This document shows, piece after piece, positions 7,665-35,919 of a stretch of 64,000 nucleotides of DNA (positions within the stretch are counted from its first letter, which is position 1; every line of letters begins with the position of its first letter). The translations under genes were made by a program, and so were the position numbers. The stretch is from NCBI RefSeq assembly GCF_053078305.1, contig NZ_CP166879.1. One strand, 5' to 3'. A model generated the notes under the pieces. That model was not told where the DNA came from, ran no database searches, and saw only the letters and a program-made list of their open reading frames with translations.

Positions 7665-8567
7665 TTATTGATAAACAAAAGTCACGCCAATAATCGATTG
7701 CACATTCCCTGCAGTCACCTGCCCTCCGGTACGTGCGTAATTTGCCGTTAATCCCAGACTTACCGCCGAAGTTCCTACTGCTCCTAACGATACCGTGTTA
7801 TTCGCTGGAATAATCGTACCGTTGCGCGTCAACTGTACGCCGACGCCCTGCGCTGGTGAAAACGACGCGGTATTGGTGAAAATCGAGTTGCCCGCATCTG
7901 CGGTTGTGCCGGAGAGGTAATACCCCAGGTTTTGGCTTTTCGCACAATAAACGGTAAGAGGAATTGGCACTGAACCAGGGTAGTCCGGCAGAGTAACAGT
8001 GACATCACGAGCAGAAACATCGCAGCCGCCAGTAGGCACCACCACATCATTATTGGCGTAAATATTCCACACAAACTGGAAATCATCGCTGTTATAGTTG
8101 TTGGTCTGTCGCAAAATAAGCACGGCAATTAATGAGCCAGCTTTAATCGCCACCCCGCCCGCACTGCTCACAGGCGTCAAATAAAGCGCCACCGGCCACG
8201 GCTTATCCGTTCTCGAATTATAAACAACCCGCGGCGTTTCGCTGGTGGTCGGAAATGGATAGCTACTGCCACTATATTTTACGGTCCCGGAAAAATTAGA
8301 TAACACGCCGCCATAAGCCGAGCCTCGTTGCAGTGTGACATAGTCTGTAATGGTTTCCGGATAATCGTTATGGCAAAAGATTTGCGTCGAAAGATCTACG
8401 ACCAGGTTTTGCCCCACATTCACGGCAGGCGCAAGGTTTACATAAACATTAGCGCTGCCACCGCCAATAGGGATAGCGGTACCATTGGCGGTTTTACAGG
8501 CGAATGACCAGGCATTTACCGACCAGCCCATCAGCAGTACAGCAAACAGGGTAATAACTCGTTTCAT
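7665..8567 (-). CDS. fimH: Type 1 fimbrial adhesin FimH (mannose-binding)
   Basis: 300 aa, signal peptide, FACKTANGTAIPIGGGSANVYVNLAP lectin-domain sequence. Confidence 0.96.
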   Translation of the reverse strand: MKRVITLFAVLLMGWSVNAWSFACKTANGTAIPIGGGSANVYVNLAPAVNVGQNLVVDLSTQIFCHNDYPETITDYVTLQRGSAYGGVLSNFSGTVKYSGSSYPFPTTSETPRVVYNSRTDKPWPVALYLTPVSSAGGVAIKAGSLIAVLILRQTNNYNSDDFQFVWNIYANNDVVVPTGGCDVSARDVTVTLPDYPGSVPIPLTVYCAKSQNLGYYLSGTTADAGNSIFTNTASFSPAQGVGVQLTRNGTIIPANNTVSLGAVGTSAVSLGLTANYARTGGQVTAGNVQSIIGVTFVYQ

Positions 8568-9642: not shown

Positions 9643-12279
9643 TTAACGACATTCAGCTGATAGCTGGGTTAATAACTGCTGCTGACTCTCTGGTGGCAGT
9701 TGATAATTGGCGACACAGTGAGCATTTTCCTCTTCTCCCCATTTCACCTGAACTTTTCCCGCTAGAGGCATTCCGCTGAGGTAAACCTGACCATTATCCG
9801 CAACAATGCCGCTACTCTGGCTACTCTCTGATGTCACCATCGCCCCGAACGGCAGCGGCTTATTATTGTGGGTTAGCGTCATGAGCAGTTTTATCCCAAC
9901 GCGCGCTTTAAACTCTGCTCGCACGATCGCCCCACGAGTGGGAACAACGTTAGCGACCGCGTTATCTAAATCGACGTTATCAGCCAGGGTATTGGTATCC
10001 AGCGCCACTCTGTTTTCCCGATATTCGGTGGCATAAGGCAGCACGGCATAACCGCGCCAGTCGGTACGCACCCCCGTCTGGTTTTCGACTTTTGCATCTT
10101 TTGCGCCAGGCGCTTTAACAAGTACCACCGTATCGTTTAACGGCTGCCCCAGCGTTACACCATTGGCATGAGCCAGTACCCCACCGCTGACTCCGTAATA
10201 GAGCTGCTTAATATCATCGCTATGGCTGTAACCGATATTGGCATTGCCGTAACCACCGCGATAATTCAGCGTGGTGTAGCCTGTACTTCCGCTATTACCA
10301 TCGCCTCCCCCGGCATAGCCGGTTTGCACGCTATAACTGAGGTTGTTGTCTTCCAGCAACGTACCGTATACACCAGCCAGATTGGTCATCCGACCGTTGA
10401 GATCGTGTGACATGCTGTAGCTGGCACTGGCATGTCGCCACTGAGATTTACTGTCAGAACGCAGCCAGTGGCTGAAAGGAATATTGACGTTAAGCGCTAA
10501 CATCTGATCCCGTCCTTTTTGCCAGGCGTTTTTCGTCAGGCTATAGCTGAGCGTCCAGTTGATATCTTCGAACGCAGTATTTAATCCAGCCTGGAATTGC
10601 TCATCGACATTACTCGTTCCCCAATAAGTTTGATGGCTACCACTCAAATACAGTGTTGATGTGCGCCCGAGTTGCTGAGTAACGGTGAGCTGTAATTTCC
10701 CGCGTTTGTTATAAGCGAGGTTGTAATAGTCGGTGAATTTCGGCTTAACCTGAATAACTCCGTCCTGTGTTTCGATGTTGTAGCCATTCATTCGACTGTA
10801 TGTTGTATCAGCGAAATTAAAATATCCGCTGGTCGAATAACGGTAACCCACTAACTGAATATTCGTGCCTGACTCATTGAGCGATTTGTTATAGAGAAAA
10901 CGCACCGATTGTCCGTCATGCTGACTGTCATCGGGAAGTGTGGAATTAGCCTGCGTCATATCCACAGACAGAGCGCCCAGTGCCCCCATGTTTTTCCCGA
11001 TACCGAAATTAAAAGCACGATAACGATCCGCCAGTTGCGTTCCACCATATATTGTCCAGCCAGCCGGAAGGCCGTGGAGTAATGTACTCTGGAAAAAGCG
11101 GGTTTTTTCCTGCTGCGCATTTCCACTACGGTATTCTCCTGCCGTAATGGAATAACGAGTATGCCCTTCACGTTGCAAAAGCGGGACTGACGAATAGGGT
11201 ACGGTAAAAATCTGCGTGCTGCCGTCAGCCTCTTTGATCGTTACCTGCAAGTCACCACTATTACCTGCGGCATAGATATCGTTGATGGTAAAAGGCCCCG
11301 GTGGCACCGTACTATTATAAATGTCATACCCATTTTGTTTAATAGTGACCTGTGCAGTACCACGAGCAATACCGTGGATCACCGGGGCAAATCCTCTTTG
11401 GCTATCGGGTAACATATTGTCATCTGAGGCCAATTGTGCGCCGCGAAAGTTAATACCATCGAAAATATCGCCCTGAGTATAACCATCACCCAGCGTCAGC
11501 CGGGAACGTAAAGGAATTATGTCTCGCTCAAGCCAGGTATTGATATGCTGCCATTTATTTTTGCTACCTGATGAACTGTCGCTACTGTTATAACTCCAGG
11601 TGGTATTGTCGCGTAAACGCCACGCACCAATATTTAACCCACTCTGTAGGTTTAAATATGCATAATGGCTGTTACCCCCAATCCGATTCTGTACACTATT
11701 TCCGCTGAAATTATAATTGAGCAATCCGGCATTAATACCAGGATCCCATAACTCAGGAGGAATATAACCACGCGCGCGATTACTCATAAATGCCTGAGGG
11801 ATCGTCAGGTTCAGTCGCTGCTGACCAACATCTAAATGCGCAGTAGCGTCCTGGACCATTGTGGTTAATGGCACACAGGCATCATCCGCCAGCAGATTCA
11901 TACCGGCGACAGAAGCCGTATTCAGCCCCATACTGGCAAGTTGCGCGCGTGTCAGGCAGGGAACAATCCCTTGTTCACTGTCGCCCGTATTAAATGTGAC
12001 ATCACGCGTTGCCATATAACCATTATTCAAATAGATATCGACACGATACGTCCCTGGCGGTAATTCTTGCCCATTTTCAAAACGCGATAAATCGGCCACA
12101 GCCTGGGGATCATCCGCTAAAAAACGCGGGTTAAAATAGAGTTCGGCAGATGACAAAGGTGCCTGTGCGGCAAAAGCACAGGCAACAAAGAGCCGGACAA
12201 AAAAACCAGCCAAACGATGCTTACGAATATGCAAGCATTGTGTGTTTCGCTGGTAAAGTCTTAAATTCAGATATGACAT
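9643..12279 (-). CDS. fimD: Outer-membrane usher FimD
   Basis: 878 aa usher-family protein between fimC and fimF. Confidence 0.96.
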   Translation of the reverse strand: MSYLNLRLYQRNTQCLHIRKHRLAGFFVRLFVACAFAAQAPLSSAELYFNPRFLADDPQAVADLSRFENGQELPPGTYRVDIYLNNGYMATRDVTFNTGDSEQGIVPCLTRAQLASMGLNTASVAGMNLLADDACVPLTTMVQDATAHLDVGQQRLNLTIPQAFMSNRARGYIPPELWDPGINAGLLNYNFSGNSVQNRIGGNSHYAYLNLQSGLNIGAWRLRDNTTWSYNSSDSSSGSKNKWQHINTWLERDIIPLRSRLTLGDGYTQGDIFDGINFRGAQLASDDNMLPDSQRGFAPVIHGIARGTAQVTIKQNGYDIYNSTVPPGPFTINDIYAAGNSGDLQVTIKEADGSTQIFTVPYSSVPLLQREGHTRYSITAGEYRSGNAQQEKTRFFQSTLLHGLPAGWTIYGGTQLADRYRAFNFGIGKNMGALGALSVDMTQANSTLPDDSQHDGQSVRFLYNKSLNESGTNIQLVGYRYSTSGYFNFADTTYSRMNGYNIETQDGVIQVKPKFTDYYNLAYNKRGKLQLTVTQQLGRTSTLYLSGSHQTYWGTSNVDEQFQAGLNTAFEDINWTLSYSLTKNAWQKGRDQMLALNVNIPFSHWLRSDSKSQWRHASASYSMSHDLNGRMTNLAGVYGTLLEDNNLSYSVQTGYAGGGDGNSGSTGYTTLNYRGGYGNANIGYSHSDDIKQLYYGVSGGVLAHANGVTLGQPLNDTVVLVKAPGAKDAKVENQTGVRTDWRGYAVLPYATEYRENRVALDTNTLADNVDLDNAVANVVPTRGAIVRAEFKARVGIKLLMTLTHNNKPLPFGAMVTSESSQSSGIVADNGQVYLSGMPLAGKVQVKWGEEENAHCVANYQLPPESQQQLLTQLSAECR

Positions 12280-13711: not shown

Positions 13712-14260
13712 TTATTGATACTGAACCTTGAAGGTCGCATCCGCATTAGCTGCGCCAGGGGTTGCGACACCGGTTGCATAATAACGCGCCTGGAACGGAA
13801 TGGTGTTAGTACCGTTATTCAGGGTTGTTTGCTCACTGAATGTCGCACCATCCAGCGTCAGCGCAGCACCCGTTCTGTCCAGGATCTGCACACCAACGTT
13901 TGTTGCACTACCTGCAGCAGAACTCTGCAGAGCCAGAACGTTGGTATGAGTCGCATCAATCGCCGTACCTAAAAAGGCAACAGCGGCTTTTGATGCAACA
14001 TTGGTATCGCAATCATTCAGCTGAATGTTAAAACCGACAGCAGAACTGGTTGCTCCGTCCTGTGCCAGCGATGCGGTACGAACCTGTCCTAACTGAACGG
14101 TTTGATCCACAGAGCCTGCATCAACTGCGCAAGCGGCGTTAACAACTTCCCCTTTAAAGTGAACGGTCCCACCATTAACCGTCGTGGCAGCGGCCAGAGC
14201 CGCTGTAGAACTGAGGGACAGAGCCGACAGAACAACGATTGCCAGAGTTTTAATTTTCAT
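13712..14260 (-). CDS. fimA: Type 1 fimbrial major subunit FimA
   Basis: Start set at [23 protein letters not shown] (182 aa); pilin C-terminus ...FKVQYQ. Confidence 0.95.
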
Positions 14261-14378
14261 GCTGCTTTCCTTTAAAAAAACTATTTCTAAATCGACATGG
14301 GCAGTCGTTCTGTACACTTTGTTTTGTCAACGAGTTTGACTGCCAACACTGCACAGTTTTCCCCCAAAAGATGAAACA

Positions 14379-14693
14379 TTTGGGGCCATTTTGACTCATA
14401 GAGGAAAGCATCGCGCACAAACTTTTTCAGTTTATTTGTTGGCTTAATATTCTATTGTTATCTTTATTTATAGATTTTTATATTGCATGAGGTGGTTTTT
14501 GGAGAGAAGAATGAGGAAGATGCGTCGAGCCACAGAAACGTTAGCTTTACATATAGCGGAGGTGATGTGAAATTAATTTACAAGAGAAATAATTTACATA
14601 TCAAACAGTTAGATGGTTTTTGTCGTTTTTTAAAATTTTTATGCTTGAGAAAAAATACGTAACTTATTTATGATATGGACAGTTTGGCCCCAA
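14379..14693. promoter_or_regulatory. fimS: fimS invertible phase-variation switch (315 bp) bounded by 9-bp inverted repeats TTGGGGCCA (14379-14387) and TGGCCCCAA (14685-14693); carries the fimA promoter
   Basis: Both 9-bp inverted repeats read directly between fimA and fimE; sigma70-like TTGAGA-18bp-TATGAT at 14645-14674 on + strand. Confidence 0.9.
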
Positions 14694-14740
14694 TTGTCTT
14701 GTATTTATTTGTTTTTTAACTTTATTATCAATAAGTTAAA

Positions 14741-15337
14741 TCAAACCTCTTCTCTTTTTAATTTTTCGTTTATGAGATTATTTCTTTCCCATAATCCGGC
14801 AAAACGAGCAGCATTACTGGCGGTATAACGTACAGTATGGCGAATATTTCGATGCCCGAGATAATCCTGAATTAAACGAGTATCTGCACCACGCTCCGCC
14901 AGTTCATAACCGCAAGCATGCCTTAACATATGAGGATGAGTCTGCGTTACGGTTCCAGCTTCAATACCGGCATCACGAATAATGCGATAGGCCTGCTGGC
15001 GAGAAAGCCGACTCCCGCGGCGAGAAATAAATATAGCGTCGGTCCGGTCAGCGCCTTTCCAGTTAGCACGTTCCAGGGTCCAGCGTTCCACAGCTTCACG
15101 CTCATCAAAACGTAACGGGTGAACGGTAGAAAATCCGTTCTTCAGTCGGCGAATATTTATTCGACCTTCATTAAGGTCAAGATCCTGATAATGCAGATCA
15201 AGCAGTTCACTAATACGCATCCCATGCCGATATGCCAACAGAATAAGACAATAATCTCTGGCTCCCGTTGCCCCGTAACAAACCGCCTGCATCATGGCCT
15301 GAACTTCTTTACCGGTAAGATAACGACGTTTACTCAC
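14741..15337 (-). CDS. fimE: Tyrosine recombinase FimE (ON-to-OFF switching)
   Basis: 198 aa, MSKRRYLTGKEVQAMMQAV..., C-terminal HxxR...Y recombinase motifs. Confidence 0.96.
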   Translation of the reverse strand: MSKRRYLTGKEVQAMMQAVCYGATGARDYCLILLAYRHGMRISELLDLHYQDLDLNEGRINIRRLKNGFSTVHPLRFDEREAVERWTLERANWKGADRTDAIFISRRGSRLSRQQAYRIIRDAGIEAGTVTQTHPHMLRHACGYELAERGADTRLIQDYLGHRNIRHTVRYTASNAARFAGLWERNNLINEKLKREEV

Positions 15338-15814: not shown

Positions 15815-16417
15815 CTATAAAACAGCGTGACGCTGTCGTCCTCTGGCTCTATCCCAGATGCCGTAAAAACGCCCTGCATTGCTGGCGGTATACCAGACAG
15901 TATGACGAATATTGCGATGCCCAAGATAATCCTGGATAAGTCGCGTATCTATTCCCATATTCGCCAAAGCAAAACCACACGAATGGCGTAACATGTGCGG
16001 ATGAATCTCCAGTGACAACCCGGCATTACCACCGGAAGTCGAGATAATATGGTAAAACTGTTGCCGAGAAAGCGGATTCCCCTTACGCGATAAAAATACC
16101 CACTCGCTCTCAGCATGCGGATAAGAAGTACGGATACTCAACCAGTTTTTTAAAGCCTGAATTTCTTTGTTCAATAGCGGGTGCGTTGTTGAAAAGCCTT
16201 TTTTTAATCGATGGATATATATACACTTTGCCTTAAGATCAATATCCGAAATCCTCAATCGACAAATTTCACTCGCCCGGAAACCATGAATAAAACAAAG
16301 CAAAGTCAGACAATAATTACGTGCTGCATGAGGCCCGGTATTTGCTGCTTTAAGGAGTGATTCGATTTCACTATGGGTCAGGAAGTTCCTTTTTTTGTTA
16401 TCAGCCTTATTCTTCAT
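15815..16417 (-). CDS. fimB: Tyrosine recombinase FimB (bidirectional switching)
   Basis: Start set at MKNKADNKKRNFLTHSEIESLL (200 aa); paralog of FimE. Confidence 0.95.
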   Translation of the reverse strand: MKNKADNKKRNFLTHSEIESLLKAANTGPHAARNYCLTLLCFIHGFRASEICRLRISDIDLKAKCIYIHRLKKGFSTTHPLLNKEIQALKNWLSIRTSYPHAESEWVFLSRKGNPLSRQQFYHIISTSGGNAGLSLEIHPHMLRHSCGFALANMGIDTRLIQDYLGHRNIRHTVWYTASNAGRFYGIWDRARGRQRHAVL

Positions 16418-20767: not shown

Positions 20768-21418
20768 TTAATTTGATTTATTCGCATCCATCAACGCTTT
20801 TAACTCCTCCGGCGTAAACGGTGGTTTGCGTCGGTGCAACATCGCATGGCAATTAGGGCACACAGGAAGTAAATCATTAACTGGATCCAGCAGGTAATCC
20901 TCTTTAATGGCTGAAAGCGGCACCAGGTGATGCATATGGATAAAGCCCTCAGCGATATCGCCATAGATCTTCACCAGATCAACGCCGCATACGTTGCACT
21001 GGCATCCGTGATATTCGACTGCTTTCTCGCGAGCTTTTTTATCGCGTTCATAGCTGTTTACCGTCACCTTTATCGCCGCACCTTCAACGTAGGTCCCCTG
21101 CGACGGCAACTCATCCGGGAACAGAACATCGGCTATGGGAGCCGCAGCGGCTTTATCCTGATGAATATGAAATCCCTGATCTATAAGTAGCTTGACGCAT
21201 TTAGATTTTATTCCGCCGGTGAAATCCGCAGGGGTAAATTGCGTCCCCGTCATCAATGTCGCTGCGATGCCAGCAATCGCCTTCGAGGGGTAACGTCGGC
21301 CATGATATTCAATCTCATACAACCGTGCAGGCTGGAACTGATGAGTTTCTCCCGCATCCCATAAATGAATAGCTTTGATGATATACCGCCGAGGAAGATG
21401 ATCGGGGAGTTTATTCAT
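20768..21418 (-). CDS. HNH endonuclease-domain protein (C-terminal CxxC...HH...CPNCH zinc/HNH motif) with uncharacterized N-terminal domain; possible modification-dependent restriction enzyme
   Basis: C-terminus CQCNVCGVD...HMHHLVPL...CPNCHAMLH read directly; no family assignment verified. Confidence 0.6.
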   Translation of the reverse strand: MNKLPDHLPRRYIIKAIHLWDAGETHQFQPARLYEIEYHGRRYPSKAIAGIAATLMTGTQFTPADFTGGIKSKCVKLLIDQGFHIHQDKAAAAPIADVLFPDELPSQGTYVEGAAIKVTVNSYERDKKAREKAVEYHGCQCNVCGVDLVKIYGDIAEGFIHMHHLVPLSAIKEDYLLDPVNDLLPVCPNCHAMLHRRKPPFTPEELKALMDANKSN

Positions 21419-21497: not shown

Positions 21498-22427
21498 TTG
21501 AACAGCAGAAAATTTGCGAGCATGATCGCAATTATTTCACTGCCAGGGATATCAATGGCTTCCAGTAAATCGCTACAGCAGGCAATTGCCAATATAAAAA
21601 TCTGGCATAAGGGTGAACAGCGCGCGCCGCATAAGCCATTGTTATTGCTATACGTATTAGCGGGATACCTGCATGGACATCCGCGCCTTTTCGATTATGG
21701 CTCGGAAATCTACGAACCTCTGCACAGTTTACTGGAACGTTTTGGGCCACAGCGTTCACAGTACCGACCTGATATGCCGTTCTGGCGATTACAAGGCGAC
21801 GGATTCTGGCAATTACACAATGCCGAGCGTTGCTCAACAGCAGGGAGCAGCCGACAACCGCCAGTGAAGGAACTGAACGAATACCACGTTGCAGGCGGTT
21901 TCGATGAACAGCACTACGCCCTGGTAACCGGCAATAAAAAACTCATCAATACTCTGGCGCAACAGATACTCGAAGCGCACTTCACCGAGAGTATTCAGGA
22001 AGAAATTGCTGACGAGCTGGGTTTTGATCTCCAGCAAATCCGTAAACAGCGCGACCCGTTATTTCGCAAAAATGTATTACGCGCTTATAAATACCAGTGC
22101 GCGATATGTGGCTTTAATATGCGCCACGACGACACCACCGTCGCGCTGGAAGCGGCGCATATAAAATGGAAACAGCACGGCGGTCCTTGTGAAATTCCTA
22201 ATGGCCTGGCGCTTTGCGCAATTCACCATAAAGCCTTTGATAAAGGATCGATTGGCCTGGACGAAAATATGCGGGTACTGGTATCAGATGCGGTAAACGG
22301 CGGAGGGATCGTTGAGAGATTATTCTGGGATTTTGACGGGAAAACTATTGCGTTGCCGCAGGTGCGTAAAAATTACCCTTATGAGGGGTTTGTGGAGTGG
22401 CATCGGAAAGAGGTTTTTAGGGGGTGA
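21498..22427 (+). CDS. HNH endonuclease-domain protein with ~180-aa N-terminal putative DNA-recognition domain (predicted restriction endonuclease type)
   Basis: C-terminal CAICGF...HIKWKQHGG...NGLALCAIHHKAFD HNH-like motif; divergent from preceding HNH gene. Confidence 0.6.
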   Translation: MNSRKFASMIAIISLPGISMASSKSLQQAIANIKIWHKGEQRAPHKPLLLLYVLAGYLHGHPRLFDYGSEIYEPLHSLLERFGPQRSQYRPDMPFWRLQGDGFWQLHNAERCSTAGSSRQPPVKELNEYHVAGGFDEQHYALVTGNKKLINTLAQQILEAHFTESIQEEIADELGFDLQQIRKQRDPLFRKNVLRAYKYQCAICGFNMRHDDTTVALEAAHIKWKQHGGPCEIPNGLALCAIHHKAFDKGSIGLDENMRVLVSDAVNGGGIVERLFWDFDGKTIALPQVRKNYPYEGFVEWHRKEVFRG

Positions 22428-23049: not shown

Positions 23050-25320
23050 CTAATCATTTCCCTTACGAATATATGGGCCAAAAGCCCAAGAATCATAATA
23101 AGGGTGATGGACTAGTTTTTCATTAAATCGAACACTATAAGTTAATTTTTTTATATTTTTACGTACAGCATTAATACTGGGCAAAGAGGAAAGATAATCT
23201 ATAAACTTATCGATAGTGATTTCCCCTTCGCAACACTCAAACCCATCAATGATATTTTTCGCCATTTTTCCATTTTCATTTGTTTGATATATCACTCCAG
23301 GTATTCGTTGAAAAAAACTAGATAATGCATATTTGTCCGCTACATATGTATCATCCACATGATATTTCCCACCGAGCATAGTTGTAGTAACAATAAGCTT
23401 ATACACACCTTTGGGTTGCCATGTTGATGGTAGTTCGAATTCTTTAATGATCACATCAAGATGATTAAGATAATGTTCAGAAATTCGATTTATTTGTTGA
23501 AAATAAGAACGCATAAATTTATTATTATGATCATGTATTAATGAGCTATCTCCAACGATGTTACACACTTGCTGATAGTACTTACCATAATATATTGGTT
23601 GACCATTTGATTTTAGTTCTGTAAAAATCAAACAATCATCCAGGAGAATCACGCAATCGCACTGATAATTAGCATGAGCATCAATTGGAGAAGCTTTAAT
23701 CCCCGCATCACGAACTTGTTTTATAAATTGTTGCTCATGAAATCGCCCTTTACTTGCTTGAGAAATTTTTTTGGAACCAAATAATGACATTAGAGAGCGA
23801 GTCACTGAGCTATTTGCTATTAATGCAGGCATTAAGCATAAACCGTCCATACAGGGAATAAATGGGCAATCATTAAGATCATGTGATTTTGAATTGAAGG
23901 TAAAATAATCTATCAGTTTTTTTGCTGCATCTGCTGCAATCCCCTTACGTTGAAAGAATGATAACCAACTCTCACGGCTTTTTATGATCAGCCAGCGATC
24001 CAACTGTAGGGGTATAGGTTTTGTCGATGAAAATCTTTTGCTCATTTCTTCTTTAGATAACTCGACTAAACATTGATAAGCGTGCACCCAATTAAATAAT
24101 GATATATTCCCATATTCTTCATGAAGGTCATCAGGAGATATATTTTCCAACTCGCTTAGATGAAATGAGCTAAAAACGCCATCAGAATTTAAGTAAGATG
24201 GCATATGATCCTTTACCCAACTATTTAGATGAAAATGTTTGTTACTAAATTCATGAACTTCGCTATATAGATGTGACGCTCTCATCATTAGTCTATTTCT
24301 TGCAATCTCATAATCTCGGTATAAACAAAAACTATCAACCTCAAGAGAGTAAATGTTATTATCCAATTTTGTAAATACTGCACTACTTAGTCTGAAAAAG
24401 TCTCTTACTCTGCTTAATGAGTCAAAAACATTCCACTCATTAAGGTACCCTCCCATTGAAAGCAAGGTTTGTTTATTCACACAAGAAGTTAGTTTCAATG
24501 GCTCATGAGTCCGTAAATAAGAAAATATTCGTCCGGTGTAATTGGCTACCTCATCAAATGCCCTATCGATAACTCGAAAATATTCGATATCAGGTTCAGC
24601 ATGAATATTAATATTTTCAGAAACGATTACTCTGCTTAATGAGTCAAAAACATTCCACTCATTAAGGTACCCTCCCATTGAAAGCAAGGTTTGTTTATTC
24701 ACACAAGAAGTTAGTTTCAATGGCTCATGAGTCCGTAAATAAGAAAATATTCGTCCGGTGTAATTGGCTACCTCATCAAATGCCCTATCGATAACTCGAA
24801 AATATTCGATATCAGGTTCAGCATGAATATTAATATTTTCAGAAACGATAAATAATGGAAAAATCCTCTTCATTTTTTTAGGATCATTGACCACAACCAA
24901 GGATGATAATGATGATAAAAACATCTCACAAAACATGATGAGATTAAGTATTAATGCATGTGATTTTTTTGTATTTTTACGCCAAATACCAGCACATTTT
25001 GTAGCCGCAAAGAAAGAATTATTTATATCATGCATAATTTTACATTGACTCTCGAACTCAGAAATTAGTTCAATGTTATCAGGAAATGAGTTTACTAGCT
25101 CATTAATACATTTTTTGAATGTATTGTTATACTCAACTTCAGTCTGAACTGAAAATCTATTATAATAGATGGAAGATATTCTCAGCACATCCAAGGCGAT
25201 ATCTATACTAATATCATCTCTTTTTATGTACTCACAAAAAAAAGAACAAAACTGTTTCGGGTCGTTAGCAAGATTACTAATTCTAGTGGTATCATAAACT
25301 TTTTCCATTTTTCCATACAT
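23050..25320 (-). CDS. Hypothetical 756-aa AT-rich orphan protein; C-terminal region has a PD-(D/E)xK-like motif (CDCVILLDD...FTELK)
   Basis: Long uninterrupted ORF, low GC, no recognisable family; nuclease motif is inference only. Confidence 0.6.
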   Translation of the reverse strand: MYGKMEKVYDTTRISNLANDPKQFCSFFCEYIKRDDISIDIALDVLRISSIYYNRFSVQTEVEYNNTFKKCINELVNSFPDNIELISEFESQCKIMHDINNSFFAATKCAGIWRKNTKKSHALILNLIMFCEMFLSSLSSLVVVNDPKKMKRIFPLFIVSENINIHAEPDIEYFRVIDRAFDEVANYTGRIFSYLRTHEPLKLTSCVNKQTLLSMGGYLNEWNVFDSLSRVIVSENINIHAEPDIEYFRVIDRAFDEVANYTGRIFSYLRTHEPLKLTSCVNKQTLLSMGGYLNEWNVFDSLSRVRDFFRLSSAVFTKLDNNIYSLEVDSFCLYRDYEIARNRLMMRASHLYSEVHEFSNKHFHLNSWVKDHMPSYLNSDGVFSSFHLSELENISPDDLHEEYGNISLFNWVHAYQCLVELSKEEMSKRFSSTKPIPLQLDRWLIIKSRESWLSFFQRKGIAADAAKKLIDYFTFNSKSHDLNDCPFIPCMDGLCLMPALIANSSVTRSLMSLFGSKKISQASKGRFHEQQFIKQVRDAGIKASPIDAHANYQCDCVILLDDCLIFTELKSNGQPIYYGKYYQQVCNIVGDSSLIHDHNNKFMRSYFQQINRISEHYLNHLDVIIKEFELPSTWQPKGVYKLIVTTTMLGGKYHVDDTYVADKYALSSFFQRIPGVIYQTNENGKMAKNIIDGFECCEGEITIDKFIDYLSSLPSINAVRKNIKKLTYSVRFNEKLVHHPYYDSWAFGPYIRKGND
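24406..24849. repeat. Perfect tandem duplication of a 222-bp unit (2 copies) inside the 756-aa ORF, in frame (74-aa duplication)
   Basis: Identical DNA blocks beginning tactctgcttaatgagtcaaaaacattcc at 24406 and 24628; protein repeat VIVSENINIHAEPDIEYFRV... x2. Confidence 0.9.
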
Positions 25321-25996: not shown

Positions 25997-26020
25997 GTGG
26001 TGCGAAGGCCGGACTCGAAC
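25997..26020. repeat. Direct repeat of leuX 3' end (attachment-site repeat) marking the distal boundary of the P4-like element
   Basis: tggtgcgaaggccggactcgaac matches leuX 3' end tggtgccgaaggccggactcgaac (38719-38742) at 23/24. Confidence 0.8.
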
Positions 26021-26285
26021 ATTTAATTAAACAACTGTATTTAAATAGTTTTTGTATTTAAAAATGAATTGATGCCCCTTTTTGTGCCCCCATTACCAAA
26101 ATAACAACCTAACCTTGTACTAAAAAAGAGATTTTTCAATGTAGGCACTCTGGTTCGGCTACGCTTACCGGAGACGAACCTGAACATAAGAAATCTGAGA
26201 TAACTTCATAGTAATCATCTTTAACACTTTTGACCAATAATATCTATCATAAAGGCAGAGAAATTAATCTCTGCCTTTATTAAGG

Positions 26286-27154
26286 TCACATAAAAAGATT
26301 ATTAATTAGAGTACACTGTTGACATCCATTAATATCTACAGCTTTTAAAAAATCTGTGTTACTAATCAAAACAGCATTACTAACACCTGAAAACTGCAGC
26401 TGTGCATACATACCTAAGATAGATTTTTTTTCGTAATACTGAGATCTTCCTGTATAACTTTCACCAGTATTAGAACTTATAAATCGCCTCGTTCTTTCTT
26501 GTATCAATAAATTATTTTTAAGGAAGCTCAAAATATCTTGCTGCAATTGTTTGTTTTTGTTATGAAAATAACATAACAATTGATCCTCTAAGGTACCAAG
26601 CTGAGTGTTAACGTCATGAAAAATATACCCCCCCATTCACTCCCATTAAACTCAATAATACTTCCATTGGAGAGTTGAGTAGTATCTTCTAAACCTATCT
26701 CATTTTTAATCTCTGTTATTCTGGCATCAATGCCAAGTTCATCAGCATCAAAAAAATATAAAAATCTATATGCAATTTCTATACTGAAGTCATCTGTACC
26801 AGAAAGTTCTTTATACATAGTGACTAACTCAGCCCTTTCACGACTTCTGCCATCACCATTTAGATTATGTATAAAAATTAAGTTCCCGTTATGATAGAAA
26901 CAAACAGAAGGTAGTTTTGGCCCGTTTGGCTGAAAGCCAAGTTTTTTATCTGGAATTCTTACTTGACTTAGTTCTTTTTCAAAGCGTTTATCAAACGGTG
27001 GAGGTAATTGACCAATTTTAAGATCTTGAAGTTGGAATCCATTAACTAAAAGAATTCTGCTAAGAAAAGCGACGTCATGCTGTCCTTCACAAAAGGCAAC
27101 TATGACTCTATTATAAGATACACTCACAATTTTAGCCTCTAATATCAAGATCAA
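26286..27154 (-). CDS. Toprim-like (OLD/DUF4435-like) putative nuclease partner, split into two overlapping frames (188 aa + 116 aa) by a frameshift at a G7 homopolymer (26628-26634)
   Basis: Candidate Toprim acidic residues (CEGQHD ... FFDADE); the two frames join if the run were G8; start ambiguous (TTG at 27154 or GTG at 27127 preceded by GAGG). Confidence 0.5.
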
Positions 27155-29369
27155 TATTTTTTATCAAATAGCCAAATCTTTCGCCATCAGCCCTTTTCAC
27201 TACTACTTTATCGTCAACTTTGCTTAACTGAAATCCAGTAATGCAATCATTATTATAATCATTATTTAAAAAAGCTCTGATACATTCACCCGAATGTGAC
27301 GTAAGGAACACTTGCACATTGAAACGTTCTGCAAGTTGTTGCGTAAATTTAGTAAACTCCAATAGTAAACTATAATGAATCGCAGTTTCAAATTCATCAA
27401 TAAAAAGTACACCGTTACGACATGCAGCAAAAGATAAAGCTATATAAAAGATGCGCTGAATACCCTCTCCATAAGAAGTAAGATCGAAACTTCTGTTAAA
27501 ATCATATGCTGATTCTACGATAAACCTTTTGAGCTCCATGTCTTCAGTAAATCTGACATCTTTTATCGTTGGCTCAATTTTATTCATGAATTCAATAACA
27601 AGGCCGATAGCGGATTGTATATTTAAATCATCTGATTCTGAGTCAGTTACAGACGTTAAATTTGCACCTATACTTTTGTTATAATCAGTGAGCAAATCGT
27701 CTATATCGTAGAAATAAGGGCTTTTAAATGACGATGAACACAAATGCGAAACTTGATCAGCGTTCCTTCTCATACGTTCATGGATAAAAGTATGGACTGT
27801 GTTATTTCTAAATTCTCCATCAATGCTAGACTTTAAGCTATAAGATGCTATATAGTCATCTTGTTTATCAATTGAAGAATCATCATATTTAATCATTTCA
27901 ACAGTAACATTACTATCATCAAATACTCCTGACAAGATTATTTTATCTTGGAAAAGAGCATTTAGCAATGTTGGACTCAAAGTACTGATTTTATTTTTTT
28001 GCCTAATAAGATTAAAATGCGATGAAATATCATTACGCTGCGTCAATAAGTAAATTGCTTCAAGCAATGAAGTTTTTCCAGCATTATTAAAGCCAGCAAT
28101 GATATTAATCTTATTGAAATTATCCAATGAGAAGTTTTTAAAGAATTTATATTTTTTGATATAAATGGATTTAAAATGTTTTTTTACTCCATACTCAAAA
28201 TTAGTTGTATAGTTTCCTCCTTCGATATTTATAGCCATCTGCTTTGGCATTATTTGTGTTAGTTTTTCTTTTGCATCATCTAATAAGCGCAAATCCTCTT
28301 GGTTTATGAGGCTACTATATAGATTTAAATCCTTTAAGGCGTCTTCAAGCTTGCTTAAAGCATTTTTATAGTTTTGCTGATTTACTGAACCGCTCGCAGC
28401 TAATCCTCTTGCAAGGCTACGTTCATCCTCCATTACCTTCAAGGCTTTTTCATTATTGATGAACAAAGCAAGATCTCGTATCTCAAGAGATTTAGTAATT
28501 ATAGGTTCTAGCTCAACGTATTCACCATTACTTTCCTCTTCAATATCATCTTCTAGCTCATTTTTCTCAAGGTATTCATCTGTTTTAGAGATCCACGAAA
28601 AAAGCCTATCAAGATTCACTAAATTTCTAGCATAATAACCGTTATCACTCCAGTCTAACCAAGATTTAATTACAGGCTTTTTGATTATTTCTTCAAAAAT
28701 ACCAAACATACTTGGTTCGAATTGCTCACCATACTCACTTGTTTTATATAAGGAAATTAGATTATAAACTCTAAGCATAGAGCGAAGACGCGTTTTAGAA
28801 ATACCGAGCGAACTAACTAGCTCATCTTCTTTTTCAACATACTCATCTCGAGTTTTGTCTTCATATGGTTTTAAAAAATCATAAAGCAGTTTGGACTGAT
28901 TATATGTTGACCACTTTTTATTACCACTTATATGCTTTAATCCCATTACAATCAGATGTTTTTCAACATCTTGATTATTATGGATTTCGAAAGGAACACT
29001 TCTAAAAATAGATGGATCTAGTTTTCCAATATCAAACCCCTTTTCATATGCTTCTTGCAATGCTTTCAGCGCCGTTACACGACGATTTCCCTCAAGGACT
29101 AAATAATTGTTATCTCCTAAATCCTTTACTTGAATAACATCAACATCTAAGTATCCATTAGATTTAAAACTTGCTATTAGATCTTTGATATTCTCTTGTC
29201 TATTTCCTTCTATAAAAAAGCGAGTCCTACGCTGAATTGTTGGATCTAGCATGTCCTTTTCTGAGACTGGCTTGTGCTGGTCATTGTCAACAAAACGGTA
29301 GTTATTAGGATCTAGAAATAAATTTTTTAAATTTTTGCTAATGCGCGGGCGAATTTGCTCGACATTCAT
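27132..29369 (-). CDS. ParB/Srx-like N-terminal domain fused to ABC-type (AAA_15/21, OLD/AriA-like) ATPase; putative anti-phage defence ATPase
   Basis: N-terminal LVLEGNRRVTALKAL (ParB GxRR-like); C-terminal Walker A GFNNAGKTS, signature-like SYGEG, Walker B VLFIDEFE, H-loop TSHS; GAGGTGA RBS before ATG. Confidence 0.65.
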   Translation of the reverse strand: MNVEQIRPRISKNLKNLFLDPNNYRFVDNDQHKPVSEKDMLDPTIQRRTRFFIEGNRQENIKDLIASFKSNGYLDVDVIQVKDLGDNNYLVLEGNRRVTALKALQEAYEKGFDIGKLDPSIFRSVPFEIHNNQDVEKHLIVMGLKHISGNKKWSTYNQSKLLYDFLKPYEDKTRDEYVEKEDELVSSLGISKTRLRSMLRVYNLISLYKTSEYGEQFEPSMFGIFEEIIKKPVIKSWLDWSDNGYYARNLVNLDRLFSWISKTDEYLEKNELEDDIEEESNGEYVELEPIITKSLEIRDLALFINNEKALKVMEDERSLARGLAASGSVNQQNYKNALSKLEDALKDLNLYSSLINQEDLRLLDDAKEKLTQIMPKQMAINIEGGNYTTNFEYGVKKHFKSIYIKKYKFFKNFSLDNFNKINIIAGFNNAGKTSLLEAIYLLTQRNDISSHFNLIRQKNKISTLSPTLLNALFQDKIILSGVFDDSNVTVEMIKYDDSSIDKQDDYIASYSLKSSIDGEFRNNTVHTFIHERMRRNADQVSHLCSSSFKSPYFYDIDDLLTDYNKSIGANLTSVTDSESDDLNIQSAIGLVIEFMNKIEPTIKDVRFTEDMELKRFIVESAYDFNRSFDLTSYGEGIQRIFYIALSFAACRNGVLFIDEFETAIHYSLLLEFTKFTQQLAERFNVQVFLTSHSGECIRAFLNNDYNNDCITGFQLSKVDDKVVVKRADGERFGYLIKNIDLDIRG

Positions 29370-29634
29370 ATGTCACCTCAATGGTGTAGGAACTATACAA
29401 TGCAACTTTACTTGATACCTCAGCAATCAACAACTTCATGTTTTTGAAACTAAGCGCGCGCAGCCCCGCACGCCTGCCCGCTTCGCTTAACAGACTGGTT
29501 TTCATGCACCTCATAAATCGTCTCAGAAGCCACCAAACAAGGGTTTTCTCGTCAAAAATGGTGCATAAGACTCATGCGTTTTCATGCGCCATAGACATGC
29601 ACTCATTCGCTCTCATGCCAGCCAGGAAAAGGGG

Positions 29635-29662
29635 ATAAAAAATCCCGGTACTGGACCGGGAT
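29635..29662 (-). terminator. Rho-independent terminator after the delta/Ogr gene
   Basis: Stem atcccggt-loop-accgggat followed by T-run on the minus strand. Confidence 0.55.
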
Positions 29663-29682
29663 TACGTGGGCGTTCTTTCTAA

Positions 29683-29964
29683 TCAGACAGGAATCTGCTG
29701 ACGGCTTGACAGTTTTGACGCGGAGCCATAGCGATTAAGTGTTTGCTGTTGTTTTTCCGGGGATTGTGCTTTGTCTGATAGCTGTTCATTGCGTCGGGGT
29801 TTCATGATTATCTTATCCACACTCTCCAGTGCCGTAAATGTGCAGGAACATTCCAGATTCTGGCACTGATACCACGAGCGTTTAACTGACGGAGCTTCAT
29901 AGGCTGCTGTTCTGGCGTGTGCAACTGTACCGCATTCCGGACATTTAAGTGCCATTAATATCAC
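29683..29964 (-). CDS. Ogr/Delta-family zinc-finger late-gene activator
   Basis: MALKCPECGTVAHARTAAYEA...WYQCQNLECSCTF matches the Ogr C4 zinc-finger pattern. Confidence 0.8.
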   Translation of the reverse strand: MILMALKCPECGTVAHARTAAYEAPSVKRSWYQCQNLECSCTFTALESVDKIIMKPRRNEQLSDKAQSPEKQQQTLNRYGSASKLSSRQQIPV

Positions 29965-30512
29965 TCCTGTATATCGTTAATGTCATTCAGGCGTTGCTGA
30001 AAACGCAGATGTTGTGCCGGGGTGTAAGAGCCCTGGCAATCACGAATCATCCCGGGGTCAGGCATCAAACCGGATTCATCCAGGATCTCACGATAATCCC
30101 CGGCAATTTCAGGCGGTGTTATTGTCAGCTGGCGAACCAGAGCACTGCGTAATATACGGGACGCAACGTCAACCCCTCCGCGCCCCTTCAGGAACGGAGC
30201 CAGTGCAGATGTCAGGGCTGCCCCATTCGCCTGCATAAAATTGCTGAGAGCGGCTTCTGTGCAGGCTTCCATCAGTAAATGCTGCGAGTAAATGCATTCG
30301 CGCGCAGCACAGTTAATTTGCCATTTCAGCACATCCAGACGTTCCCGCAGTAATTCGAGCTGTCGGGCATAATCTGCTGGTTTTTCTGTGGCAGCGAGGA
30401 GAGATGCTATCTGTTGTTCAACGGCTTTTCGGCTCTCACTATGTCCGGCCCACAGAATACGGGCATTCCGAAAACTGGTAAGTGCCTGGTCAGGCGTGCC
30501 TCGGGCCGTCAT
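29961..30512 (-). CDS. P4-like late-operon protein (tentatively Psu-like)
   Basis: 183-aa helical protein in late operon between Sid-like and delta genes; assignment by size and position only. Confidence 0.4.
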   Translation of the reverse strand: MTARGTPDQALTSFRNARILWAGHSESRKAVEQQIASLLAATEKPADYARQLELLRERLDVLKWQINCAARECIYSQHLLMEACTEAALSNFMQANGAALTSALAPFLKGRGGVDVASRILRSALVRQLTITPPEIAGDYREILDESGLMPDPGMIRDCQGSYTPAQHLRFQQRLNDINDIQE

Positions 30513-31252
30513 ACTGCTTTCTCCTTCTCAGCAAGTTCCTGACGAACCTTAATTTTATGCATAGCTGCCGGAGAGAGTTGATTACTGAAATCCAGACGCG
30601 CCGCATAATCCGGGGCAATTCCCGCCAGTTTAAACACCGGGTCCTGTTCAGGCATCGCATCGTTAGCCAGAGCCGGTCTGGTGATATGTTTATGAATAAA
30701 GTCTTTCAGCACTGTGTCCGGGTCATTAACTGAATTCACCACACCCACAACGGCACTGGCTTCCCGGCCCATTGTGGATTTAAGCAGGCTCAGCGTCTGA
30801 ATAAGCGCTTTTCCATGCGATTGCATAAAATCTTCCCAGATTTGTTTTGCGCGAATATCCACAAGAATGTTATGCGCGTGGATATACTTTCCGGCTAATT
30901 CCGCAGCTTTCTGCGGCAAAAGTGCATTTTCGCTTTCCTGAGCCGCCAGCAGCTCATCAAAATCCTCAAGCGTTTCTCGTCCCAGCGCAATTTCCGTGCG
31001 CAGTTTTTTCATTTCCTTTGAAACCACGCCCTGACTTTCACGAAACAGCGTGCGCCACTCCTCATTCAGTGTGTTCGTCGTGGCTTCCATCTCAGCGCGA
31101 CGCTGGCGGATTGTCGCAATATTATCCGCTGCCGCTTTCTGCTGACGACGTGCTTCAAGCCATGCGTTTCTGGCTGTGTTCATGGTTTCCAGTGCCCGCT
31201 GCGTTACAGCCGGAAAAGTGGAAAGGTTGTTATTCACTGCGGTGTTGTTCAT
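30509..31252 (-). CDS. P4-like late-operon protein (tentatively Sid-like capsid size-determination scaffold)
   Basis: 247-aa helical/coiled-coil-like protein, first gene of late operon; assignment by size and position only. Confidence 0.4.
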   Translation of the reverse strand: MNNTAVNNNLSTFPAVTQRALETMNTARNAWLEARRQQKAAADNIATIRQRRAEMEATTNTLNEEWRTLFRESQGVVSKEMKKLRTEIALGRETLEDFDELLAAQESENALLPQKAAELAGKYIHAHNILVDIRAKQIWEDFMQSHGKALIQTLSLLKSTMGREASAVVGVVNSVNDPDTVLKDFIHKHITRPALANDAMPEQDPVFKLAGIAPDYAARLDFSNQLSPAAMHKIKVRQELAEKEKAV

Positions 31253-31430
31253 GGCTTCTCCTGTCGGGTTGGTTCGTTACGTCAATTGTGTCGTGGCTGA
31301 CACAAGCACACTATCGGTGCTCAGTGTGTGGTGGCTGGCACAACGGGCGCTTGCGGTTATTCAGACGTGGCTATGAAAGCCAGCCAGATAAAAATGCCCT
31401 CAGTTTCAGTCTGCTTTATGTCCCTGATGC

Positions 31431-31618
31431 GGTGGAACAGGTGAAACATGTGTTACAGCTTTGTTTTATAAAGCACTTATATACACTGCACCGGTGGAAC
31501 ATCGCGGGTAACAAGGTGGAACAGCGGATTGGCTGGCGTTACATCTGTTCCACCTCACTATTTCAGAAGGTGGAACAGGTTCAGCCCTGTAAAATACGGT
31601 TGTTCCACCTGTTTCACC
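31431..31618. repeat. Iteron array (GGTGGAACA / TGTTCCACC, at least 7 copies in both orientations); probable P4-type ori/crr alpha-binding sites
   Basis: Repeats read directly downstream of the alpha gene; resemble the P4 TGTTCACC iteron. Confidence 0.6.
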
Positions 31619-31652
31619 TGTTACCCTTAATAAATAAGACTCACGCAAAGCC

Positions 31653-34325
31653 TTAACCCGGCACCTCGCTGTTGAAGACATAGAGCCTGCGGGGATTCAT
31701 CTCTGGCGGGCGAATGGTTGTCTGGAGTTTGCCATCAGTGGAGGGCAGCAGGTATCCACGATCTGCGCACAGACGAGCCACCTTGCGCGGGTCAAATCCC
31801 CTGCAGATTTCTTTCCAGCCGGACGGCATGACATAGAACGTAGTGACAGCTTCCGTGCCCTGCGCGGTACTGCCTTTCTCCACCCTGCGCCAGCCCACCA
31901 TATTGCCGGGGCGGTTGCGCTCGTCATACCAGTCTGCAAAGCGGCTGTACTGATTCGCGGTAAAGAAACTGCGAACCTGCTCCAGTGCGGCAATATCTTC
32001 CTGATTGGCGGTGTGCCCGCGATCTTTCAGCCATGCGTTCAGGCAGACGCGGGTTGCCCGCAGTGCTTCACCCTCAGGCCAGCCGGTGATACCCAGACGG
32101 GTTGCCAGTTCACCCGCCATCGCCACCAGTGCAAAGCGATTCACAGCCCGGCCCACCTGGTTGCCTGCATCTTTCGGAGTCAGGGCGGCAGCATATTCCT
32201 TCATCAGCGATTTTGCCTGTGCCGTTAGTCCGTTAAGATCAGCGGTCAGTGCTTTCAGCCACTCCCGGAACGGCGAACCGTAGTAGCAGGACGTGGCCCA
32301 TTCAAGATGCTCTGCCAGAGCCTTGCCGCTGTCGAAGCCGTGCAGCTCCTCAAAAACGCCAAACTTCCCGGAATCGCTGGGGATCTGGATCATCCTGACT
32401 TCCATCCCGGCAAAAGTACGCTCACCGGCCTTTGCCGCATGTTCGGTCAGAGATAACTCGCCAGTTGAAAAGAACAACAGGCGCCACTGCTTACGGGTAC
32501 GCAGCTCACCGTCCGTACCGGCACGACCCTTGCCCTGACCGTTTGCCAGCATGTAGGCGATACTGCCTGCCTCGCGTCCGTCAACTTCCCGGATCTCATC
32601 AAGCATCATGGCGGCATCGTTGCGGCGGCTGGCGCATCCCTCCAGCGCGTTGCCGGTGGCCCGCCATGTCTGCCAGTAGTCAGGCCCGCCGCAGACGGAG
32701 GTTGCCGCTTTCATGGTGGTGGTCTTACCGTCTGTCGATTCCCCTTTGAGGTGGTAGCCGCCGCCGTCCATACCAACCAGCCGTAACAGTGGTGCAGCAA
32801 AGGCCAGGCTGACAGCAAATGCCACGCGGGAGTTGCCGGTACAGTAGCGGGATACGTTCTCCCGCCATTCCTCTGTTGTACCCGACACGCGGAAATCACG
32901 CCCCTGCACGGAAGTGGTCTGGAGAATGACACCCTCTGCACCTTCACCGCTGACCTCATCCTGCAGGACGTAAACCTGACCATGCCAGCCAGTACGGCTG
33001 ACGCAGGTCACGCGGCGTTCCGGTTTACACAGTGAGATATATTCCATCAGGCGTGCGCGTGCCTCACCGGTGGTGCTGATATAAGACAGCCCGTTAACCA
33101 GCAGTACCCGGCGCAGTTCCTCACCACTGCCGCTCAGCATTTCCATCGGCATCGCCCAGCGGCGACGCTCACCCCATGTATCTTCCCATTCCAGCAGTCG
33201 TCCGAAGTTACCGCCATCGGCATCGCAGGTGATTGCCGTAACGCGCAGCGGGCTGCATATTTTGACGTTCTGGATCTCCGTCTCACCGTTGCGCTGTACC
33301 TGCTTTTCATACCAGAGATATTCCTGGGTAAGACGGAACCCGTGCGGCAGTTGCGTGCGGCCTTCCCCGCACAGTACCAGACCGTTGCGAAAGACTTCAC
33401 GGGCACGGGTAATACCGTGCTCCCGATGAAAGTCATTCCAGTCAGCCTTAATCTCTCCTGGTGGCAGCGTCATCCAGCCGCCAACAGCTTTTGCCGCCCG
33501 TTCAGCAAAGGCTCTGCCGGGATTCTCCCCCCCGTCCTGAAAATCGTTATCACCGGCGATGATAATTTTTACCTCAGGCCAGCGTGCCCGCAGCGACTGC
33601 GCCACATTGGGCAGGTTGCCCGCAGATATGGCAGCCACTACGCATCCGGCAGTGAGCTGGCTTACCGTCAGCGCCGTAGCGTAACCTTCGGTAATCACCA
33701 CCTGTACCGGTGGTTCAGACGGTAACGGGCTGAGCGACACAAACGCGCCTTTCATCGTGCTGCCGGGCAGTATGCTTTTTTCACCCGTCGGGGCGATAAG
33801 CTGTGCACCGGTCACGGCTCCGGTGTTGGTCGTGAGTGGTAACAGCAGAGAACCGGCAGGAAAATCCTTACCGCTGATATGCTGCACGCTTCCGGTCAGA
33901 GAGGCTGGGTATCCGGCGAACCCTTTTCCTGTCAGATAGGCGCTTTCTCCCGTGTGGCTCTCTTTCATCAGCGCCGCCACGGTAAGACCCATGTCGCGTT
34001 TAGGGGCTTTTTGTCTGGCAGGCTTAACAGGCAGTTCCTGCACATCCGGCACATTAAGCATCTGCGCCACCTCCTGCGCAGCCTTTCTGACGCTGTAACC
34101 GGTTACGAGCTTAACCAGATCCAGACCGTCACCATTGCCACACTGGCTGCAGATCCACGTCCCGCGCCCGTCAAGGTCATCAAGGCGAAAACGATCCTTG
34201 CCCCCACATTTCGGGCAGGGACCGTGCCTGCCGTTTTCAGGTACATCAATACGCAGCATCTGCAGAATAACGGGCCATTTCCCCCGCGCGGCGGCTGAAA
34301 TCTGCGTAACCGTCTGTATTGTCAT
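31653..34325 (-). CDS. P4 alpha-like primase/helicase replication protein
   Basis: 890 aa; N-terminal Cys-rich zinc-binding region (CPKCGG...CSQCGN), ATP-binding GESTDGKTT motif. Confidence 0.8.
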   Translation of the reverse strand: MTIQTVTQISAAARGKWPVILQMLRIDVPENGRHGPCPKCGGKDRFRLDDLDGRGTWICSQCGNGDGLDLVKLVTGYSVRKAAQEVAQMLNVPDVQELPVKPARQKAPKRDMGLTVAALMKESHTGESAYLTGKGFAGYPASLTGSVQHISGKDFPAGSLLLPLTTNTGAVTGAQLIAPTGEKSILPGSTMKGAFVSLSPLPSEPPVQVVITEGYATALTVSQLTAGCVVAAISAGNLPNVAQSLRARWPEVKIIIAGDNDFQDGGENPGRAFAERAAKAVGGWMTLPPGEIKADWNDFHREHGITRAREVFRNGLVLCGEGRTQLPHGFRLTQEYLWYEKQVQRNGETEIQNVKICSPLRVTAITCDADGGNFGRLLEWEDTWGERRRWAMPMEMLSGSGEELRRVLLVNGLSYISTTGEARARLMEYISLCKPERRVTCVSRTGWHGQVYVLQDEVSGEGAEGVILQTTSVQGRDFRVSGTTEEWRENVSRYCTGNSRVAFAVSLAFAAPLLRLVGMDGGGYHLKGESTDGKTTTMKAATSVCGGPDYWQTWRATGNALEGCASRRNDAAMMLDEIREVDGREAGSIAYMLANGQGKGRAGTDGELRTRKQWRLLFFSTGELSLTEHAAKAGERTFAGMEVRMIQIPSDSGKFGVFEELHGFDSGKALAEHLEWATSCYYGSPFREWLKALTADLNGLTAQAKSLMKEYAAALTPKDAGNQVGRAVNRFALVAMAGELATRLGITGWPEGEALRATRVCLNAWLKDRGHTANQEDIAALEQVRSFFTANQYSRFADWYDERNRPGNMVGWRRVEKGSTAQGTEAVTTFYVMPSGWKEICRGFDPRKVARLCADRGYLLPSTDGKLQTTIRPPEMNPRRLYVFNSEVPG

Positions 34326-34705
34326 ACTTCCCCCTGATACAACGTCACACCGGTACTGCAGAAGTCATCAAAGGCCGCCGGAAGCGTGCGGTACATCTCC
34401 GCCATCACTTCACAGCCGCGCGCGGTCAGTACCGGCGGCGCGGTCAGCAGTGACGGCTCCAGCATGTCAGTCAGCAGTGCCAGCGCGGCAGCGGCGCCCT
34501 GTGCTTCGCCGTACTCGTTAATCAGTGCGCACTCGATATGCAGCGCAATGGCCATTTCAATACGCTCCACCGTCAGGCTGTGCGGACCATACTGATCACT
34601 GCCAGTTTCGTTCAGCATTTTCTGCCGCCATGCTGAAGCAATAGCCCGTCGGTAAAGCGCGGTGGTCATTTCTGCCGGGAAAATGGAAACCTGCGGCTGG
34701 TTCAT
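34322..34705 (-). CDS. Hypothetical P4-like early protein
   Basis: 127-aa ORF overlapping alpha start by 4 nt (translational coupling). Confidence 0.5.
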   Translation of the reverse strand: MNQPQVSIFPAEMTTALYRRAIASAWRQKMLNETGSDQYGPHSLTVERIEMAIALHIECALINEYGEAQGAAAALALLTDMLEPSLLTAPPVLTARGCEVMAEMYRTLPAAFDDFCSTGVTLYQGEV

Positions 34706-34986
34706 CTGGCACCTCCTTCAATCAGTGCGCAGCTGTGTGCAATATCCGTCAAATCTGCCCGCAGGTACTCCATCAGCGCGGCGACACCAGGCGCACAGCC
34801 TGCGTCCAGTGCTCCGGCCTGAGACGGGTATTCAGAAAAGAGAAGCTGGAGCATGTCGCAGGCATTTCTTGCGCGGATCAGCTTTCCGAAACCGTCCTCT
34901 GACAACCCATAGGCAAAAGCACCGGTATTGTGTTTTTCAGGCAAAGTGTGGCCCTGAGCACCGTTGTGCCCGTTTGAAATATTCAT
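34702..34986 (-). CDS. Hypothetical P4-like early protein
   Basis: 94-aa ORF overlapping the next gene by 4 nt. Confidence 0.45.
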   Translation of the reverse strand: MNISNGHNGAQGHTLPEKHNTGAFAYGLSEDGFGKLIRARNACDMLQLLFSEYPSQAGALDAGCAPGVAALMEYLRADLTDIAHSCALIEGGAR

Positions 34987-35017
34987 CGTGAATTACTCCG
35001 TTTTCAGCGGTATTTTG

Positions 35018-35407
35018 TCAGAGAAACTTTGAATAGTGACCGTCGTCAGGCTCAGCAGAACGCCGTATGGTACGCTCCCGCCAGCGGATAAATAGCACAG
35101 ACGGATGCAGTGTCAGCGGGCCGGAACCACTACTGCCTGCAGGAGCTGGTGCAGGCTTAAAGAGCGGTACATCAAACAGGCGCGTATACCGCTGTTCAAA
35201 CCATGCCAGAGGGCAGGAAGAAAGCTGGTTGTCGCTGTCATGACGTATCAGCACTTCACAGCTGAATTCAGGATTAACCAGCGCCACAGAGGGCGAGGCT
35301 TCTATTAATCGGATAATCGTGACCGTCCAGCCACGTTCATGCCGCCAGCGTTCGCCGGGGTGCGGATAATTACGCATGTTCACCTCCGCAGGGAATGCGC
35401 CCGGCAA
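35018..35407 (-). CDS. Hypothetical P4-like early protein (true start possibly the internal Met at ~35377)
   Basis: 129-aa ORF in the same early-operon orientation. Confidence 0.4.
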   Translation of the reverse strand: MPGAFPAEVNMRNYPHPGERWRHERGWTVTIIRLIEASPSVALVNPEFSCEVLIRHDSDNQLSSCPLAWFEQRYTRLFDVPLFKPAPAPAGSSGSGPLTLHPSVLFIRWRERTIRRSAEPDDGHYSKFL

Positions 35408-35621
35408 AGCTCAGTACACAGTCCGGGGCAAGTCTGCGCCGCGCTGACCGCTCATTATCTGCGGTGAGCCTTAACATCACAGGACGGGCATTGCGTTGAC
35501 TGCGGTTGATCGCCGCAAATAACCAGGTACACTTCTGTTTAGCCATCTTCGTTACCTCATATAGCGGATTGGTCAGAAGCCCGGTTAGTGTTGCTGCACT
35601 GTCGGGCTTCGCACTCACAAG

Positions 35622-35713
35622 GTGAATCGCACCTTTAATTTTAAAGCTACCCTTAAGTGAATCGCACTTCAAGCTTTTTATTATCATTTTTTTTGCGTAT
35701 ACTGAATCGCACC
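35622..35713. promoter_or_regulatory. Three direct repeats of GTGAATCGCAC (35622, 35657, 35702) in the divergent control region; putative operator
   Basis: Repeats read directly upstream of the 61-aa + strand ORF and the early operon. Confidence 0.45.
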
Positions 35714-35733
35714 TAACGCGAGGAGATCCAGTA

Positions 35734-35919
35734 ATGGCAACGAGTTCAACTAACAACAAGTCGCAGCAACTTAATGCTCGTTTCCCACATGATGTAGTTG
35801 CAGAATTAGAAAGCAACCTTGAAGATGGAGAAACGAAAGCGCAATTCATTGTTACTGCTGTAAAAGGCGAGATTAAACGCCGACAGCGCAGGAAAAATAA
35901 GCCAGAGCAAGGAAGTTGA
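35734..35919 (+). CDS. Small basic protein (61 aa), possible DNA-binding regulator
   Basis: ORF with GAGGAG RBS; basic C-terminus (IKRRQRRKNK); no family verified. Confidence 0.4.
   Translation: MATSSTNNKSQQLNARFPHDVVAELESNLEDGETKAQFIVTAVKGEIKRRQRRKNKPEQGS

Follow-up and report, generated by a model that had tools for sequence, protein, structure and literature searches.

Two features define the fimS switch of Escherichia coli: a length of 314 bp and the sequence of its bounding repeats (PMC9820224, PMC2647292). FimB flips the element either way and FimE acts from ON to OFF; only when the element is OFF does a Rho-dependent terminator inside it shorten the fimE transcript (PMC2647292). Two other systems, hyxS with FimX and ipuS with IpuA and IpuB, likewise consist of a short invertible promoter segment with short inverted repeats and a nearby tyrosine recombinase (PMC6083910). 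They differ from the fimS described here in locus, in target genes, and in repeat length (16 and 7 bp). In E. coli K-12 MG1655, the locus order fimB-fimE-fimS-fimA, the 314-bp length, and the 9-bp repeats are all as in the DNA studied here.

This DNA is a stretch of 64,000 nt from contig NZ_CP166879.1 (assembly GCF_053078305.1), hereafter the window, to which all positions refer. The current work indicates that positions 14380-14693 of the window almost certainly hold the canonical fimS switch of E. coli in its OFF phase. The phase-OFF finding itself is already known; it is a textbook feature in the state most often seen.

Boundaries and gene context of fimS

The element and its two boundaries are located as follows.

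14380..14693, no strand: fimS invertible element in phase OFF, 314 bp long with a perfect 9-bp inverted repeat at each end
14380..14388, no strand: 9-bp inverted repeat TTGGGGCCA, the fimA-proximal boundary (IRR position)
14685..14693, no strand: 9-bp inverted repeat TGGCCCCAA, the fimE-proximal boundary (IRL position)

The sequences TTGGGGCCA and TGGCCCCAA are perfect reverse complements of each other. They form the terminal 9-mers of the element and together delimit a span of exactly 314 bp. The repeat sequence TTGGGGCCA is the one given in PMC9820224. A sequence-only reading that preceded this analysis had placed the start of the element at 14379, which is off by one base; the element begins with the repeat at 14380.

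The map of open reading frames (ORFs) places fimS in the interval from fimE to fimA, two minus-strand genes, with fimB and fimE immediately upstream. The genes to which coordinates were assigned are the following.

7665-8567, minus strand: fimH, type 1 fimbrial locus
9643-12279, minus strand: fimD, type 1 fimbrial locus
13712..14260, minus strand: fimA, major type 1 fimbrial subunit controlled by the switch, 182 aa and intact, with 6 differences from K-12 FimA
14741..15337, minus strand: fimE, tyrosine recombinase, ON to OFF, a 198-aa ORF with Q88L relative to K-12
15815..16417, minus strand: fimB, bidirectional tyrosine recombinase, 200 aa with V86I relative to K-12

The complete gene order on the minus strand is fimB, fimE, fimA, fimI, fimC, fimD, fimF, fimG, fimH. 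Full-length frames without internal stops were found for fimA, fimC, fimD, fimF, fimG, and fimH, and fimI is seen as an ORF at the expected position. The homologous stretch of strain ETEC6335 (99.4% identity) is annotated with fimB, fimE, fimA, fimI, fimC, fimD, fimF, fimH, and one unnamed fimbrial protein, and the homologous region of MG1655 with fimB, fimE, fimA, and fimI. The catalytic residues R-H-R-Y, at the positions described for the two recombinases in PMC9820224, are present in FimB (R47/H141/R144/Y176) and in FimE (R41/H136/R139/Y171), each protein carrying the single substitution listed above. Judged by its intact repeats, its 314-bp length, these catalytic residues, and the frames of the structural genes, the switch looks functional.

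A promoter-like motif at the fimE-proximal end

The sequence-only reading had tentatively assigned phase OFF from one promoter-like motif, located as follows together with a restriction site in its spacer.

14645..14674, plus strand: sigma-70-like promoter TTGAGA-N18-TATGAT, taken as PfimA, the best match at 10/12
14656..14661, no strand: SnaBI site (TACGTA) within the promoter spacer, the sole one in the region scanned

The description of this motif holds in all its parts. TTGAGA occupies 14645-14650 and TATGAT 14669-14674 on the plus strand, separated by an 18-nt spacer. The pair scores 10/12 against the sigma-70 consensus, and the other two matches in the region 14200-14800 score 9/12. Its placement at the fimE-proximal edge was also confirmed: TATGAT ends 11 nt short of the repeat on that side, and the motif aims at fimE (14741-15337, minus strand), away from fimA. 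The three promoter-like matches in 14200-14800 compare with 1.9 +/- 1.4 in shuffled sequence and are thus not above chance; in AT-rich DNA, therefore, the motif alone is no evidence of orientation. Since it proves nothing by itself, the orientation of fimS was established independently.

Orientation by published assays in silico

Two published assays distinguish the orientations of fimS by restriction digestion of a PCR product. The sites on which they depend are located in the window as follows.

14393..14397, no strand: HinfI site (GACTC), read by the published phase assay (PMC4349694)
14412..14415, no strand: BstUI site (CGCG), unique, read by the published orientation assay (PMC9993118)

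In the BstUI assay, primers OL4 and OL20 give a 726-bp product with a unique BstUI site in fimS, which is cut into 539 and 187 bp in the OFF state and into 433 and 293 bp in the ON state (PMC9993118). OL4 and OL20 have exact matches in the window (14226-14245 on the plus strand and 14932-14952 on the minus strand), giving an in-silico amplicon of 727 bp. Digestion of this amplicon yields fragments of 188 and 539 bp as sequenced, and of 434 and 293 bp in a control in which 14380-14693 was inverted in silico. In the HinfI assay, the product of Phase_L and Phase_R gives a diagnostic band of 489 bp in ON cells and 359 bp in OFF cells (PMC4349694). These primers map to the window with their designed mismatches and delimit an in-silico amplicon of 559 bp, which is cut into 198 and 361 bp as sequenced and into 481 and 78 bp when flipped. 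The native pattern lies within 2 bp of the published OFF band. The flipped fragment of 481 bp is 8 bp off the nominal ON band of 489 bp, and despite this gap the flipped pattern cannot be confused with OFF.

By both published assays, the sequenced molecule is in phase OFF. The earlier phase-OFF reading is thus supported. This call is independent of whether the hexamers TTGAGA and TATGAT are equated with PfimA.

The opposite assignment was also considered, in which the switch is actually ON and the true fimA promoter is another element of fimS aimed at fimA. A candidate exists on the minus strand at 14604-14575, where TTGATA-N18-TAAATT matches the sigma-70 consensus at 9/12. Two independent restriction-dimorphism assays, however, assign the window orientation to OFF, and the ON reading built on this match was rejected because the BstUI and HinfI patterns contradict it; that the switch is ON is extremely improbable.

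The Fis site and the promoter end

The phase-OFF assignment was further examined with the Fis binding site, which is described as promoter-distal in fimS (PMC9993118).

14435..14442, no strand: core of the Fis binding site that was mutated in PMC9993118, placed from the matches of the arms of the mutagenic primer FBSFOR2

The core lies at the promoter-distal end, at a distance of 47-54 bp from the repeat that spans 14380-14388. The 135-bp Fis probe of the same study (BSFORBIO/BSREVBIO, PMC9993118) maps contiguously to 14361-14495, covering that end; a contiguous mapping is possible only in the window orientation and therefore supports OFF. Since the promoter-distal end abuts fimA, the promoter end must abut fimE, where TTGAGA/TATGAT is located. 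This placement of the promoter opposite the Fis site at 14435-14442 also argues against the switch being ON.

Full-text literature searches for TTGAGA and TATGAT together with fimA found nothing relevant. The two hexamers are taken to be the mapped PfimA; the start of fimA transcription is reported to have been mapped by Olsen & Klemm 1994. The identification of TTGAGA/TATGAT with PfimA is indirect, drawn from its location at the far end of fimS from the Fis site and from background literature. The start site would be expected near A14679 or A14681.

Comparison with MG1655

The sequence-only reading had also proposed alignment to a reference fimS. The fimS of MG1655 (NC_000913.3) is collinear with the window and in the same orientation, with 98% identity over the aligned 550 nt. 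The literature was searched for papers that call the MG1655 reference OFF, and those retrieved do not say so directly; the state of MG1655 was therefore derived by alignment to the window together with the in-silico assays. Inside fimS, 309 of the 314 bases are identical to K-12, and the five substitutions are located at window positions 14416, 14476, 14584, 14616, and 14634. The run of A residues separating fimE from the repeat is also shorter by one in the window, and nothing in the window is structurally different from MG1655. The substitution at 14416 (G in the window, C in K-12 on the fim-sense strand) is located beside the BstUI site, giving GTGCGCGAT instead of GTCCGCGAT and leaving CGCG intact.

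Orientation among complete E. coli genomes

The distribution of the two orientations was examined in complete E. coli genomes with a 201-nt query across the fimA-proximal junction as sequenced, a match being counted at a coverage of at least 80%. Among the 4719 complete genomes with any match, 4462 matched the junction in the window orientation. The junction with the element inverted was matched full-length in 245 complete genomes. Both orientations thus occur between fixed flanks, and of the 4707 genomes that could be typed for orientation, approximately 94.8% are OFF and 5.2% (245) are ON. The DH5alpha assembly NZ_CP026085.1 is among those that are ON.

The excess of OFF among assemblies fits the expectation from the FimE-driven bias from ON to OFF (PMC2647292). 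That the window shares its orientation with MG1655 and with about 95% of complete genomes, as such an OFF bias in culture would predict, is a further point against an ON state.

One of the ON assemblies, that of strain A16 (NZ_CP028758.1), carries the same allele. Its fimS matches the reverse complement of the window fimS at 314 of 314 bases, and its flanks are identical to those of the window over the 51 and 107 nt aligned and collinear at 100% over 709 and 396 nt by BLAST. In A16, TTGAGA/TATGAT adjoins fimA and aims into it, the reverse of the arrangement in the window. The inversion is clean, with the repeats as its boundaries, and therefore the window allele does flip.

These observations bear on the possibility that the switch is OFF and locked by mutations in the element or in the recombinases, as EPEC E2348/69 has been described to be locked OFF (PMC9096935). 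The five substitutions in fimS relative to K-12, together with FimB V86I and FimE Q88L, could be read in this way. Nevertheless, the repeats are perfect, the element measures exactly 314 bp, both recombinases retain their catalytic residues, and the identical 314-bp allele sits in the opposite orientation in A16. On these grounds the locked-OFF reading was rejected, and it is very improbable. It is similarly hard to credit that the fimS allele or the substitutions V86I and Q88L shift the switching bias, or that read-through from the OFF-state promoter, antisense to fimE, plays a regulatory part: nothing observed points to either effect, and the same allele is ON in another strain.

Proposed behavior of the switch

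Following the published descriptions of fimS, a model can be outlined for the switch in its OFF state. The promoter for fimAICDFGH would be located at one end of fimS; here it would abut fimE and fire on the plus strand, antisense to fimE. The structural operon on the minus strand would then lack a promoter, leaving the cell afimbriate. Recombination within the two 9-bp repeats by FimB, and by FimE for the ON-to-OFF direction, would flip the segment. Inversion from the present state would place the promoter on the minus strand, with an expected start approximately 130-132 nt upstream of the fimA ATG. The Rho-dependent truncation of the fimE transcript would apply to the OFF orientation found in the window. 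Promoter activity, recombinase action, and this truncation are taken from the literature on fimS.

Other features of the window

At 24405-24849 a 222-bp unit is perfectly duplicated in tandem (2.0 copies, 100% match), in frame with a length of 74 codons, inside an ORF of 756 aa at 23050-25320 on the minus strand. A Pfam search with this 756-aa ORF gave no match. In ETEC6335, the closest genome, a single copy of the 222-bp unit is found in a 678-aa 'hypothetical protein'.

A P4-like satellite prophage extends from approximately 26000 to 38800 and is integrated at the tRNA-Leu(CAA) gene leuX (38718-38802, minus strand). Its annotation was read from a 99.3% identical stretch of strain EC20 and includes an integrase, an Icd-like protein, a TOPRIM/DUF927 primase, a 'septation initiation protein', Psu, and Ogr/Delta. 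By its position, the 'septation initiation protein' is probably P4 Sid. A gene for an AAA-family ATPase and a hypothetical gene follow Ogr/Delta, presumably at the site used for defence cargo in P4-like satellites.

Two divergent genes of HNH-family nucleases (20768-21418, minus strand; 21555-22427, plus strand) are found beside a truncated sialate O-acetylesterase gene (nanS). In ETEC6335 the pair is annotated as an HNH endonuclease and a 'phosphorothioated DNA-binding restriction endonuclease'.

Meaning of the recorded orientation

On balance it is probable that the recorded orientation is hardly informative about the strain, being the one that prevailed among ON and OFF cells in a mixed culture or the one chosen by the assembler. 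Phase variation yields mixed populations (PMC2647292), and the occurrence of both orientations among complete genomes (4462 and 245) is in keeping with this. Such a mixture is compatible with the phase-OFF finding, which concerns the sequenced molecule only, and it limits the conclusions that can be drawn on phenotype. What an assembly shows is only the orientation that prevailed when the culture was sequenced, which is not a fixed genotype.

The value of the finding is one of annotation only: a phase-variable locus has been deposited in what would be its afimbriate phase, as in most E. coli assemblies. The proportion of ON assemblies (5.2%, 245/4707) may serve as a baseline for surveys of phase state in assemblies.
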